A stretch of DNA of 41,912 nt from Escherichia phage Sortsne (NC_048178.1); one strand, 5' to 3'; positions 5,830 through 10,456 are shown, counted from the first letter of the stretch. The notes: generated from the sequence alone by a model not told the origin. Numbers and translations: made by a program.

Positions 5830-5858
5830 GAAAGGGGCCTTGCGGCCCCTTTTTTTAT
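5829..5858. terminator. bidirectional intrinsic terminator between lysis cassette and Ig-like gene
   Basis: AAAGGGGCC-TTGC-GGCCCCTTT stem-loop followed by T7, A-rich on the other side; convergent gene ends. Confidence 0.8.
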
Positions 5859-6625
5859 GCTGCCGGATTAACCGTAACAGTACAGTGAATGGATTCGACC
5901 GTTTTCGGGGGGTTGGTGTTGCTGCTGGTGGCTACGCACCAGTATTCCCCGGCATCACCAGCGACCGGGGACGCTTTGGTGTAGGTCGCGGAGGTCGCCC
6001 CGGAGATCGGCGCGCCGTCCTTGTACCACTGGTAAGAGTACGGAGCGAGGCCCGTCTGAGGGTTCGCGGCCACTACCAGGGAGGCGGAGGTCCCGACGGT
6101 CCACGTCGCGCTCGCGGACAGGTTGGTGGACAGCGAGATCGCGACCTTCGTCCTCACGCGCTGAGAGTCCAGCGTCTGCCCGATCGAGTCGGTGATGGTC
6201 ACGAAGTAGTCCGCGTTATGGGTCGCTGCGGTGTAGTTCGAGATCGTCAGCGTGTCAGTCGTTGCGCCGCTGTAGCCGTTGGCGTTGGTGACGTTGCTCG
6301 TCTGCCCGCCGGAGATTTTCTTCCACTGGTAGGAGTAAGGAGGAACGCCATCAGCGGCCACCACTTTAAAGTCCTTACTGGTGCTAACCGGGACGTAAGT
6401 CGCGCCAGCGTCGCCAGCGGCCACGCCGGGGAGATCGGTCGTGAACTTGAGCGGCTTCGCCAGGTTCGGGTCGTACTCCATGTAAAACATACCAGTGGGA
6501 TCAAGCCCGGTCGGCTCGTCAGCCAGCCAGATCACGTCCTGCTGAGGGACTTCCGACGGGTCGGAGATCCGGGTGACTTTCCAGCCCAGGAGATCCGGGC
6601 GGTAGTAGCGATGCCAATAACTCAT
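5855..6625 (-). CDS. Ig-like domain protein (two tandem Ig-like repeats)
   Basis: Start refined to ATG at 6625 (GAGGA RBS); repeated PPYSYQWKK / APYSYQWYKDG motifs typical of bacterial Ig-like domains. Confidence 0.55.
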   Translation of the reverse strand: MSYWHRYYRPDLLGWKVTRISDPSEVPQQDVIWLADEPTGLDPTGMFYMEYDPNLAKPLKFTTDLPGVAAGDAGATYVPVSTSKDFKVVAADGVPPYSYQWKKISGGQTSNVTNANGYSGATTDTLTISNYTAATHNADYFVTITDSIGQTLDSQRVRTKVAISLSTNLSASATWTVGTSASLVVAANPQTGLAPYSYQWYKDGAPISGATSATYTKASPVAGDAGEYWCVATSSNTNPPKTVESIHCTVTVNPAA

Positions 6626-6699
6626 AATTTTGTCCTCATGGTGCGCCGTGTTATAGTTCCCCGGCATTGTAGATCATCTTTGAGCCGTAAACGAAAGGA

Positions 6700-7476: not shown

Positions 7477-7756
7477 ATGCTTTCCGAAGGGCGTCGTTAG
7501 CGTGGGCCATTGTCTCGCGGATCTCGCGCTTGGTGGCCTTCACCGCTTCCGGGCCAGCGGCCCACATACGGAGGCGGTTCTGGAGGCACTGCGCGTTAAA
7601 GGCCAGTGTCTGGGCCTGCGCCAGCATCAGCCAGCTTACGACCTTCGCGCGGTTCGGACGGGAGAAGATGGTCCCCATCTGATCGCCCCAGTATTTCGCG
7701 CGGAGGTCTGCCAGTGTTTCGCCGTTCTTGTTGGTGCGGATAGTTGCTGTATTCAT
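7466..7756 (-). CDS. hypothetical protein
   Basis: Start set at ATG 7756 (MNTATIRTNKNG...) with GAGGAGAC leader; first gene after promoter at 7790-7818. Confidence 0.4.
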   Translation of the reverse strand: MNTATIRTNKNGETLADLRAKYWGDQMGTIFSRPNRAKVVSWLMLAQAQTLAFNAQCLQNRLRMWAAGPEAVKATKREIRETMAHANDALRKAYGA

Positions 7757-7789
7757 CTTTCTGTCTCCTCGTGTTGGTGTGATAAAGAA

Positions 7790-7818
7790 TATAACAAAGG
7801 ATAAGTTTACCCGCAAGA
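7790..7818 (-). promoter_or_regulatory. sigma70-like promoter TTGCGG-N17-TATATT, flanked by ATCACGAAA and TTATCACA motifs
   Basis: Minus-strand reading; immediately downstream of an intrinsic terminator. Confidence 0.45.
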
Positions 7819-7837
7819 GGTTTTTTAATTATTTCGT

Positions 7838-7864
7838 GATAAAAGAGAAAAGGCCCCGGAGGGC
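7838..7864 (-). terminator. intrinsic terminator within early minus operon
   Basis: GGCCCTCCGGGGCC hairpin followed by TTTTCTCTTTT on minus strand; promoter 7790-7818 follows. Confidence 0.5.
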
Positions 7865-7869
7865 CTCGA

Positions 7870-8610
7870 TCAGAATGGGACGTTTGCCTGGTACACGGCG
7901 AGGGCGAAGCCTTCGGGGGTGGCGCTGCGGATGTTCTTCGTGCGGGTTGATGATCCTCCCAGCTTGGCCCATCCCGGATTGTTGGCGACTGCCGGGACTG
8001 GCTTATGGTCGGGCATGTTGAAAGCGCCGCCGCACCAGATCCCCGTCTGCTTCGGGTAGCTGTCCCGCGCCGGGTAGATCTCCGGGTAGAGGCTATGCTG
8101 GTGATCCTCCGGCAAGTAGCCGCCGAAGTGGTACGGGTGGAACCAATGATCGCAAGGTCGCCACATCGTGGAGAGCCGGGAGATCTTCGGGTTCTCCAGC
8201 ATCCAGGGGATAGCCTCCTTGTCGTCATATCCGCCGCTCTCATACGCGGCAAAGATCGCCACCTGCTCGACCATCTTCGCCAGCGCCACAGCCTTCTCCT
8301 GGAAGCGCGGATCTTTCTTCCGCTTCGCTTCCCACCAGCGCGCCCCGGTACAGGTAAGATCGGTACACTCGGCGAACGACGCCACGAACATAACGCCGGG
8401 GCCGACCTCCTCCGCAATGCGGAGCGCTTCGGCTTCGGTGTTGTCGGCGTCGAACATGCGGCCCACGCGGACCAGGTTCGGCTCCTCCGGGTCGCGGTGG
8501 ATGCCGTCCGGGTGCTGGCCGTCATACATCCAGCATTCATAGCCGCCCTTAAGCCACGGATCAACCATGATCCGGGTAAGGTTGAATAAGAAAATCGCCT
8601 TACCCGCCAT
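7870..8610 (-). CDS. hypothetical protein (replication-module associated)
   Basis: Start refined to ATG at 8610 (MAGKAIF...) adjacent to upstream stop; no confident motif. Confidence 0.45.
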   Translation of the reverse strand: MAGKAIFLFNLTRIMVDPWLKGGYECWMYDGQHPDGIHRDPEEPNLVRVGRMFDADNTEAEALRIAEEVGPGVMFVASFAECTDLTCTGARWWEAKRKKDPRFQEKAVALAKMVEQVAIFAAYESGGYDDKEAIPWMLENPKISRLSTMWRPCDHWFHPYHFGGYLPEDHQHSLYPEIYPARDSYPKQTGIWCGGAFNMPDHKPVPAVANNPGWAKLGGSSTRTKNIRSATPEGFALAVYQANVPF

Positions 8611-8611
8611 A

Positions 8612-9211
8612 TTAACCTCTCGCTGGCATGATGATAAACGTAGCCGGACCGCAAGGCGTTTCGAACTCCACGCGGAGCGGCTGATCCTTCGCGGCGAAGT
8701 GGAGAGAAGCAAACGGCATCTTAGCGCCGAACTTTTTCCCCAGCTTCTCAATCAGGCCCAGATACTCGGAGGCCACCTTGATCTCCGTGATAGCCTTCGC
8801 GCCTGCCTTCTGCCCGGAGATCAGGCGATCCACGTCAGGATAGCGAGCGTCCACGACGTCCACCGTCCCGACCGCGCCGCGCATCTTGCGGAAGTCATAC
8901 TCCGCGAGGTCCTTCGGCTTATCGGCGATCGCGCTGGTCCAGTAGACGATCCCGGCTTCCGTATCAATGACCGCCGTCGAAAAGGCCCGGCCACTGGGGG
9001 GAGTCGAGATCTTGAGGATAACGCCCTCCTCCGGGGCGTTTACCAGGCCGTGGGCGCTGGAGAGCGCCACGTGACCGTTAGAGGACTGGATCGTGTTGCC
9101 TTTCAGGTGGACGGCGTTCAGATAATAGCGGACGTCGTTCTTTGCCTGGGTCAGCGCGTGGGCGCGTAATGCTTCTACGGGTGCATAAATAATCATCTTT
9201 GAGCCTTCCAT
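8612..9211 (-). CDS. truncated DnaN-like sliding-clamp protein
   Basis: DVRYYLNAVHL resembles the DVRYYLNG motif of DNA polymerase III beta clamp, and C-terminal FIIMPARG resembles the clamp C-terminus; about half the length of DnaN. Confidence 0.45.
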   Translation of the reverse strand: MEGSKMIIYAPVEALRAHALTQAKNDVRYYLNAVHLKGNTIQSSNGHVALSSAHGLVNAPEEGVILKISTPPSGRAFSTAVIDTEAGIVYWTSAIADKPKDLAEYDFRKMRGAVGTVDVVDARYPDVDRLISGQKAGAKAITEIKVASEYLGLIEKLGKKFGAKMPFASLHFAAKDQPLRVEFETPCGPATFIIMPARG

Positions 9212-9861
9212 TAAATCAGCGTCTTGCCATCAAAAATCATTTCCGCCTGCGTGACGTACTCCGTCTTGATCTCGCCACGTTTGCGCGGCTTGATAACGAA
9301 GATCACGGACGGCTTGCTGTTCTTCTTCCCGGCGATCTTCGTGTCGGCGCGCACAAAGGCCACACGGCCCGACGTCTCGCCGTCGCTGGTGATGTGAACG
9401 ACCAGACTCCCGGCGTCCAGCGCCTTCTTAAACCACGCCGTGGAGGCGTCGGAGTTCAGGAGGAGGACGGTCGTCACGCCGCGCGCCTTCGCCTGCTGGA
9501 CGGCCTTCTCCACCCAGGGAAGCGGGTCGGCGTATGGCGGGTTACACCATGCCAGCCCGTTCTCGGCTCCCCACTCCACGCCGTCGGCCAGCGCGTCCGT
9601 TGCTTCGTCCAGGTAGACGTCGCAAAGGGCGTTTTCCTTCTCCGCTGCCACGTCGATCCCGAACGCGCCGAAGCGCTTCACGCACCAGGCGAACAGCCAC
9701 GGCGGGGTCTGCCACTTCTGGCGGATGTTATCCGGCGTAACGCTGCCTTTGAAGCGACGCCCGGAAACCTTCACGGCGTCCTCCACCTGCGCCACCACTG
9801 CCGCCTCGCCGCCGATGGCTTCCACCGCGTCGATCGTTACTTTGTCGTTTTCGTCTTTCAT
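9211..9861 (-). CDS. dam: phage Dam-type DNA N6-adenine methyltransferase
   Basis: WQTPPWLF and NPPY (WCNPPYADP) motifs characteristic of phage N6A methyltransferases. Confidence 0.85.
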   Translation of the reverse strand: MKDENDKVTIDAVEAIGGEAAVVAQVEDAVKVSGRRFKGSVTPDNIRQKWQTPPWLFAWCVKRFGAFGIDVAAEKENALCDVYLDEATDALADGVEWGAENGLAWCNPPYADPLPWVEKAVQQAKARGVTTVLLLNSDASTAWFKKALDAGSLVVHITSDGETSGRVAFVRADTKIAGKKNSKPSVIFVIKPRKRGEIKTEYVTQAEMIFDGKTLI

Positions 9862-9869
9862 GTTGCGCC

Positions 9870-10307
9870 TTATTGTCCAGTTGATCCGAAGCCGCCGGAG
9901 CGGGTGCTGGTTGCTTCCGGGAGGGTGGTCACTTCGTCGAGTTCGACCTGTTCGATCGGGACGAGCATAAACTGGGCCACGCGGTCGCCCTTCTTGACCT
10001 GCGGCAAGCGGCCAGGGATATCACAATGTAACTTCACCATTACCTCGTCGCGGTAGTCGCTATCGATCACGCCGACGCAATTAGACAGGCGGGTGTTCTG
10101 GTTGAAACCCATCCCGGATCGGGAGTAGATCAGCATGGCCCAGCCTTCGGGGATAGCTACGGCCCAGCCAGTCCGGCACAGGATCGAGCCGTCGCCCTGC
10201 GCTTCTGCGGTCAGCGCGTAAACGTCCATACACGCGGAGCCGTCGGTGGCATAGGTGGGTAACTTAAAGTTTTCATCAGTGGTTAAGCGTTTGATCTTGA
10301 GTTCCAT
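9870..10307 (-). CDS. dut: dUTP diphosphatase
   Basis: Conserved dUTPase motifs (YSRSG, GVIDSDYRDEV, C-terminal RSGGFGSTG); GGAG RBS. Confidence 0.85.
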   Translation of the reverse strand: MELKIKRLTTDENFKLPTYATDGSACMDVYALTAEAQGDGSILCRTGWAVAIPEGWAMLIYSRSGMGFNQNTRLSNCVGVIDSDYRDEVMVKLHCDIPGRLPQVKKGDRVAQFMLVPIEQVELDEVTTLPEATSTRSGGFGSTGQ

Positions 10308-10456
10308 TTTGTACTCCAGTTGTTGTCTACGTGGTAAAGTTAACGGATTCGTGATTTTATTTCAAGTCAATTTGATGATAAATTATTAAATGTCTCTTTC
10401 GTCTGGTTCCCAGGCGTTACAAATTTAGCGCCGCTGGTATCTCGTGCGCTCCCATC

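Follow-up and report, generated by a model that had tools for sequence, protein, structure and literature searches.

A family of phage mini beta-clamps that keeps the docking pocket of DnaN and lacks its ring-forming parts

What purpose is served by a phage protein that resembles the bacterial beta sliding clamp, DnaN, and has little more than half its length? The question is raised by a minus-strand gene at positions 8612–9196 of Escherichia phage Sortsne (MK651787; NC_048178.1), whose 41,912-bp sequence is the window analysed here. Sortsne, the type species of Sortsnevirus, is a P22-like podovirus with 60% G+C (isolation paper: PMC7552041). In this region it shares about 79–80% DNA identity with its closest isolates: Klebsiella phage IME279, sortkaff, Kc237 and the Murrayvirus group, IME_EC2 among them. 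The initial annotation had placed three open reading frames (ORFs) between 7870 and 9861, and all three were found where it had put them, on the minus strand. It had also suggested that the middle one encodes a clamp-like protein that could engage or subvert the host polymerase. We find that this protein, hereafter the mini-clamp, retains the docking pocket of DnaN and has lost the parts through which DnaN closes its ring.

Searches with the single mini-clamp sequence gave no match in Pfam (E ≤ 0.1), NCBIfam or the Protein Data Bank (PDB). BLASTP against Escherichia coli DnaN gave an E value of 8e-6, with 25% identity over residues 139–248. A profile of 20 family members retrieved E. coli beta from the PDB at E 7e-9, and its matches there were beta clamps only, bar one non-significant match. 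A hidden Markov model (HMM) of 164 members scored DnaN at 77.5 bits. At the level of sequence, the similarity to the clamp lies far beyond chance. The two features first noticed in the protein both held: the DVRYYLN motif (9116–9136, minus strand), which contains pocket residues R152 and L155, is identical to DnaN 150–156, and the C-terminal FIIMPARG matches YVVMPMRL of DnaN. Structure prediction, the check proposed at that stage, gave the same answer. The AlphaFold2 model, with a predicted local distance difference test score (pLDDT) of 85.6 and a predicted template modelling score (pTM) of 0.83, has the clamp fold, composed of beta-alpha-beta-beta-beta repeats. Its homologues and its predicted structure identify the mini-clamp as a genuine, truncated homologue of the beta clamp that shares the clamp fold.

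The length of 199 amino acids first assigned to this homologue required correction. That reading begins at an upstream ATG at 9211. A second ATG, at 9196, has the Shine-Dalgarno sequence GGAAGG at the right distance upstream, and the homologues all begin with MIIYAP. For these two reasons, the true start is almost certainly the ATG at 9196, giving a predicted protein of 194 amino acids (plus stop).

The description of the protein as roughly half of DnaN was right as to truncation and misleading as to what remains, namely domain II together with the final half of domain III. Profile and HMM alignments place residues 9–127 on DnaN 138–251, which is domain II, and the N-terminal clamp domain as a whole (amino acids 1–118; 8843–9196) corresponds in HMM alignments to DnaN residues about 128–251. 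Residues 158–193 align to DnaN 331–366. They belong to a C-terminal half-domain (amino acids 132–194; 8615–8803) that forms one beta-alpha-beta-beta-beta unit, corresponds to DnaN 312–366 and includes the IGFNxxY helix and the terminal MPxR (MPAR at 8618–8629). In alignments with the family HMM, each half of DnaN domain III matches the C-terminal half of the family. The three-domain architecture of DnaN (about 366 amino acids; PF00712, PF02767 and PF02768) is not found in this protein of 194 amino acids, which matches no Pfam model at E ≤ 0.1. Domain I, the first half of domain III and the second inner helix of domain II are missing. DSSP analysis of the model detected no helix between strands 59–63 and 74–78, and a Pro-containing loop replaces the second domain-II helix in both the model and the family consensus.

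The dimer interface of the E. coli ring involves I78 and F106 together with I272 and L273 (PMC11139829), all of which fall in segments absent from the mini-clamp. Both ring interfaces are gone, and a homodimer or ring of the DnaN type, as envisaged in the initial annotation, cannot occur through the known contacts. Because domain I, the half-domain bearing I272 and L273, and one channel-lining helix have been lost, we infer that the mini-clamp does not work as a DnaN-type ring.

By contrast with these losses, the pocket is preserved. Its subsite I comprises R152, L155, T172, G174, H175, R176, L177, P242, R246, V247, V360 and M362, and its subsite II comprises H175, N320, Y323, V344, M362, P363, M364 and R365 (PMC11139829). 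Every one of these residues falls within the pieces that the mini-clamp keeps, with Y323, M362, P363 and R365 represented in the C-terminal half-domain. Conservation was analysed in 164 diverse family representatives, taken as clusters at 50% identity. Equivalents were retained for R152 in 162 of 164, L155 in 157, T172 (as T or S) in 157, G174 in 163, H175 in 150, P242 in 161 and Y323 in 147; at the C-terminus, M362 was kept in 159/163, P363 in 154/162 and R365 in 139/158. Pocket columns carried a mean information of 3.0 bits, compared with 1.56 bits in the other 165 columns (Mann-Whitney p 8.7e-7), and pocket residues make up six of the seven most conserved non-start columns. In Sortsne itself, at the sequence level, the DnaN residue is kept or conservatively replaced at 12 of the 18 pocket positions. 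The family is also basic, with a median isoelectric point (pI) of 8.5 and 115 of 164 members above 7.5. The Sortsne protein has a pI of 8.9, with its charge in the C-terminal half, whereas E. coli beta is acidic (5.25).

An exhaustive HMM search detected representatives of 2,587 clusters at E ≤ 1e-3, of which 364 remained at E ≤ 1e-10. Of the top 150 matches, nearly all are 160–244 amino acids long, and five shorter ones look like fragments. By tblastn, the protein was found in 236 isolate phage genomes, among them phages of Salmonella (99), Escherichia (46), Klebsiella (26) and Vibrio (24). The 364 clusters, their consistent lengths and the 236 isolates indicate that the mini-clamp represents a real family and not a broken gene. 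Names in the records range from "DNA polymerase III beta subunit" and "putative beta-clamp protein" to "RusA-like Holliday junction resolvase" and "hypothetical", and BFVD holds many similarly named phage clamp-fold proteins of 163–266 amino acids. The beta-clamp-like nature of the family is thus already recognised in some annotations. Literature searches for truncated phage DnaN found no paper characterising such a protein.

We propose that the mini-clamp is a non-ring pocket module that binds host proteins carrying the clamp-binding motif (CBM), most likely in the service of a phage that lacks a polymerase; we put the probability of this reading at roughly 0.55. In this reading, the protein descends from the bacterial beta clamp and has been reduced to the two pieces that make up the pocket: domain II and the final half-domain of domain III. 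The conserved pocket would bind CBM proteins, and the basic surface would probably seat the mini-clamp on DNA. For a phage without a polymerase and with non-DnaB helicases, the most likely use would be to capture parts of the host DNA polymerase III (Pol III) holoenzyme, or to redirect them to phage forks. Alternatively, the module may act by sequestration, withholding host CBM clients that act in repair or regulation, for example MutS/L or Hda.

The replication genes of Sortsne are consistent with this proposal. They encode an AAA_25 RepA-like protein, a primase, a DEAD/ResIII helicase, a single-stranded DNA-binding protein (SSB), a dUTPase, a VRR-NUC nuclease, a PD-(D/E)XK exonuclease and an ERF annealase. 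No DNA polymerase was found among the Sortsne proteins in Pfam and PHROG scans, and none was found in the genome annotations of IME279 and of Skate, an unrelated siphovirus. Because the phage brings its own helicases, primase, SSB and recombinase and no polymerase, capture of host Pol III components appears to be the most likely use of the pocket. The phage SSB (15653–16198, plus strand) ends in DFDDDIPF, identical to the tip of E. coli SSB, through which host partners such as the clamp-loader subunit chi are contacted and recruited; this tip fits a phage that runs on the host Pol III holoenzyme. The early suggestion that the protein could engage or subvert the host polymerase likewise fits the near-invariant CBM pocket and the lack of a detectable phage DNA polymerase.

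Four points weigh against the proposed role. First, pocket conservation alone cannot distinguish a receptor from a ring, because a true clamp also needs the pocket for host delta and Pol III alpha. Second, the Sortsne pocket carries second-shell changes (R176V, L177A, N320A, V344D and M364A), so its CBM specificity may differ or be weaker. Third, occupying the motif through which Pol III binds beta might impede phage replication instead of helping it. Fourth, among 45 diverse mini-clamp loci from IMG/VR (130 neighbour ORFs), a family-A polymerase (DNA_pol_A) occurs in three. Confinement of the family to polymerase-less phages was accordingly rejected as an absolute rule. Neighbours at these 45 loci are a mixture of early, replication and lysogeny genes: Dam (3), C5 methyltransferase (3), DnaB (2), CII (2), replication protein O (2), ParB-like (2), RecT, ArdA and integrase. 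The large genes are mostly helicases.

The clamp pocket is a central hub of bacterial replication and repair and an antibiotic target. A large phage family, counting no fewer than 364 clusters (50% identity) and 236 sequenced isolates, has retained the pocket only. If our proposal is right, it would offer polymerase-less viruses a new way to seize host Pol III or to blunt host repair, and structural and inhibitor studies would gain naturally minimal pocket domains. A broader version, which we regard as speculative and unlikely to hold in full, is that these are widespread phage modules that display the docking site of the host clamp off the ring, thereby reprogramming which proteins can reach host Pol III, the clamp loader or mismatch repair; the lineages of Sortsne, Murrayvirus and Skarpretter might in addition use them to couple methyltransferases to replication, as a prokaryotic-virus counterpart of PCNA and DNMT1.

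The strongest competitor, which we nevertheless consider unlikely, is a true sliding clamp whose ring is closed by an unconventional oligomer, which the host clamp loader would load and which would give host Pol III processivity on phage DNA. Such a protein would need what the mini-clamp has, a clamp fold with the intact pocket required by delta and alpha alike, and many records do annotate the family as the Pol III beta subunit. Two forms of ring could be imagined. Half-domains of two protomers could pair across a twofold axis, with four protomers making up six domain equivalents, or a trimer could form like that reported for E. coli beta*, an internal-start dnaN product considered below. According to Kong et al. 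(1992), each clamp domain reportedly consists of two beta-alpha-beta-beta-beta halves with pseudo-twofold symmetry; since the C-terminal half of the mini-clamp family aligns to both halves of domain III, pairing of half-domains is geometrically conceivable. Against any ring stand the absence of domain I and of the I272/L273 interface segment, as well as the family-wide replacement, by a Pro-containing loop, of one channel-lining helix in the full domain that remains. The net charge is also basic overall, and not acidic with a basic channel.

A further alternative concerns the genes around the mini-clamp. Initially described as one coupled block of three genes, the unit is indeed coupled and comprises four. 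On the minus strand, the order is dUTPase, Dam, mini-clamp and a gene for a 246-amino-acid protein, with spacers of 8, 14 and 1 nt. The first gene (9870–10307) encodes a dUTPase of 145 amino acids (PF00692, E 1.4e-17; phrog_135, E 3.6e-52), and its stop lies 8 nt ahead of the Dam ATG at 9861. The Dam stop codon, TAA, overlaps the ATG at 9211, and 1 nt separates the mini-clamp stop from the ATG that opens the 246-amino-acid gene (7870–8610). Upstream of the block is a sigma-70 promoter-like site (10354–10381, minus strand; TTATCA-16-TAAAAT), which is a consensus match only, such sites being no commoner in the region than in shuffled sequence. Directly after the last gene lies a GC-rich hairpin with a T-run resembling an intrinsic terminator (7850–7867, minus strand), again a consensus match only. 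Together, the four genes constitute an early DNA-modification and nucleotide-hygiene operon.

The assignment of a Dam-type methyltransferase to the gene upstream of the mini-clamp (9211–9861, minus strand; 216 amino acids) was well founded. The protein scored 147.3 bits with PF05869 (cut-off 28.1) and 121.5 bits with TIGR01712 (cut-off 97.05), matched the PADLOC orphan methyltransferase model at E 1e-31, and contains the catalytic motif NPPY, in WCNPPYADP. By these sequence criteria, it is a bona fide phage Dam-family N6-adenine DNA methyltransferase of PF05869. Compared with typical PF05869 members (140–190 amino acids), which have neither extension, Dam of the Sortsne type is a long form (209–242 amino acids) with about 40 extra residues at the N-terminus and a tail of about 25 at the C-terminus. 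Its target may be GATC, and its role anti-restriction or replication timing, as the initial annotation suggested. GATC occurs at 475 sites in the window of this Dam-carrying phage, 3.2 times the expectation from base composition and 1.42 times that of a 3-mer Markov model, and the sites are spread evenly at about 11 per kb. A greedy longest-ORF caller chose a plus-strand ORF at 9199–10056 in place of Dam. This and other long spurious ORFs that lie opposite or overlap real genes, such as 7596–8654 on the minus strand, are typical of DNA with 60% G+C.

The 246-amino-acid protein had been taken as uncharacterised, which proved incorrect: it belongs to phrog_757 (E 2e-66), named "DNA methyltransferase", and some of its 162 homologues are named "Dcm methylase". 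Sequence searches in Pfam, NCBIfam and the PDB, including one with a 30-member profile, found no match, and its likeness to PF00145 and the DNMT3 catalytic domain comes from the model and not from a sequence model. The predicted structure (pLDDT 92.5) shows the C5 catalytic-domain fold, with DNMT3B, DNMT3A, a C5-carboxymethyltransferase and a prophage C5 methyltransferase as best matches and SDR Rossmann proteins scoring close behind. Motif I (FxGxG), the S-adenosylmethionine (AdoMet) loop, is absent, the corresponding segment reading FLFNLTRIM in Sortsne and FLFDxTGxM in the family consensus. In this motif-I-like loop, the Sortsne clade has Arg where the wider family has Gly, and with this change AdoMet may no longer be bound. 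Invariant in the family are Cys82, which follows a Glu (FAEC or FPEC), and E139-N140-P141; these are tentatively assigned to motifs IV (PC) and VI (ENV) by position and resemblance, not by structural superposition. As far as the model can tell, the protein is a divergent C5-cytosine-methyltransferase-like, putative enzyme. PADLOC gave no defence-system match for it or for the mini-clamp.

The position of the mini-clamp between two methyltransferase genes, with spacers of 14 and 1 nt, suggests an adaptor that tethers Dam, the Dcm-like enzyme or both to DNA or the fork, so that phage DNA would be methylated as soon as it is made, in analogy to DNMT1 and PCNA. We regard this explanation as improbable. 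In its favour, the order Dam, clamp, Dcm-like is kept in IME279, IME_EC2 and Skarpretter (Sortsnevirus, Murrayvirus and Skarprettervirus), and unrelated methyltransferases lie beside distant mini-clamps, namely an N6_N4-type fragment (phage C1), another kind of Dam (Vibrio XM1) and PF00145 proteins at two loci (L108 and L129). By raw count, methyltransferases are the commonest class of neighbour at the 45 loci, with three Dam and three C5 enzymes among 130 ORFs. Full-length phage dnaN genes also have N6_N4 methyltransferases nearby: PF01555 was found in 4 of 39 neighbour ORFs at 13 IMG/VR loci (L040, L127, L077, L099 and others), some of them possibly duplicates. Most of the 45 mini-clamp loci, however, have no methyltransferase within two genes. 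Scans with local HMMs (Dam, Dcm-like and C5) placed methyltransferases beside mini-clamps in a minority of loci, and adjacency as a universal rule was rejected.

Also in favour of the adaptor, the tail of Sortsne Dam contains QAEMIF, which fits the hexameric CBM consensus, but the motif (QAEMIF or QAEMMF) is limited to the clade of Sortsne and Murrayvirus; IME279, of the same genus and with a mini-clamp, has TLTEMMY, and Skarpretter has QQQMRD. The [ST]-x-x-[DE]-M helix is, moreover, present in many PF05869 proteins, and a CBM-like motif is conserved nowhere in the Dcm-like family. With its confinement to the closest clade and a tail helix that is common without Q or F, QAEMIF was set aside as a CBM and is at best a weak lead. 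A strict CBM scan of greedy, non-overlapping Sortsne ORFs, a set that left out the Dam gene, gave five matches in 12,867 residues, close to a rough chance expectation. They include QADLF in the portal protein, 41 residues from the C-terminus, and QALLDL at residue 19 of the primase; none is terminal in a replication protein.

The weakest explanation, a RusA-like Holliday-junction resolvase, is refuted at the level of fold and has virtually no probability left, because the protein matches no Pfam model at E ≤ 0.1, and hence none for RusA, the significant PDB matches of its profile are beta clamps and its conserved residues are those of the clamp pocket. Its sole basis is the label of phrog_3007, which matches the protein over its full length (E 9.4e-43; residues 6–198 on positions 1–185 of 190), and the names derived from it in RefSeq records NC_047862, NC_048112, NC_054651 and NC_054639. 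Given the homology to DnaN and the clamp fold, the RusA-like name in RefSeq and PHROG is wrong, and it is spreading to new phage genomes.

The window has two further features. A minus-strand ORF at 5855–6667, between the lysis genes and the early block, encodes a 270-amino-acid protein with Ig-like domains (phrog_2973, Hoc-like head decoration; PF13927). Across the whole window, CTAG is nearly absent, with 3 sites observed and 28 expected.

One of the closest known systems is DnaN itself (domains II–III; E. coli 1MMI/2POL), with which the mini-clamp shares the clamp fold and the CBM pocket. It differs in its length (194 versus 366 amino acids), in lacking domain I, the first half of domain III, the dimer-interface residues and the second domain-II helix, in its basic character (pI 8.9 versus 5.25) and in matching no Pfam DnaN model. 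E. coli beta*, described by Skaliter, Paz-Elizur and Livneh (J Biol Chem 1996), is said to be a UV-induced product of an internal start in dnaN that consists of domains II and III. At about 26 kDa, it reportedly contains all of domain III and is active as an oligomeric clamp, and so would be a precedent for a clamp made without domain I. The mini-clamp starts at about the same point, the beginning of domain II, and keeps the pocket, but is shorter by another half-domain (about 55 residues) and a helix.

Clamp-fold proteins that do not form rings are known from herpesviruses, where the herpes simplex virus 1 (HSV-1) UL42 monomer and the human cytomegalovirus (HCMV) UL44 C-shaped dimer, each protomer with two full domains, are processivity factors. 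By analogy, capture of host Pol III by the mini-clamp would resemble the action of UL42. Unlike the mini-clamp, UL42 and UL44 serve a virus-encoded polymerase, and they have no sequence relationship to it. In the trimeric clamps T4 gp45 and PCNA, which have a dedicated loader, each protomer contains two complete domains, whereas the mini-clamp amounts to 1.5 domains and Sortsne carries no gene for a loader.

The host clamp and clamp-loader hub is also the target of other phage proteins. N4 gp8 acts on the delta subunit. Twort Gp168 targets beta (PMC11139829). The mini-clamp would share their strategic target and differ in kind: Gp168 and N4 gp8 are small, unrelated inhibitors whose binding partner is the clamp or its loader, whereas the mini-clamp is itself a clamp derivative that presents the pocket.

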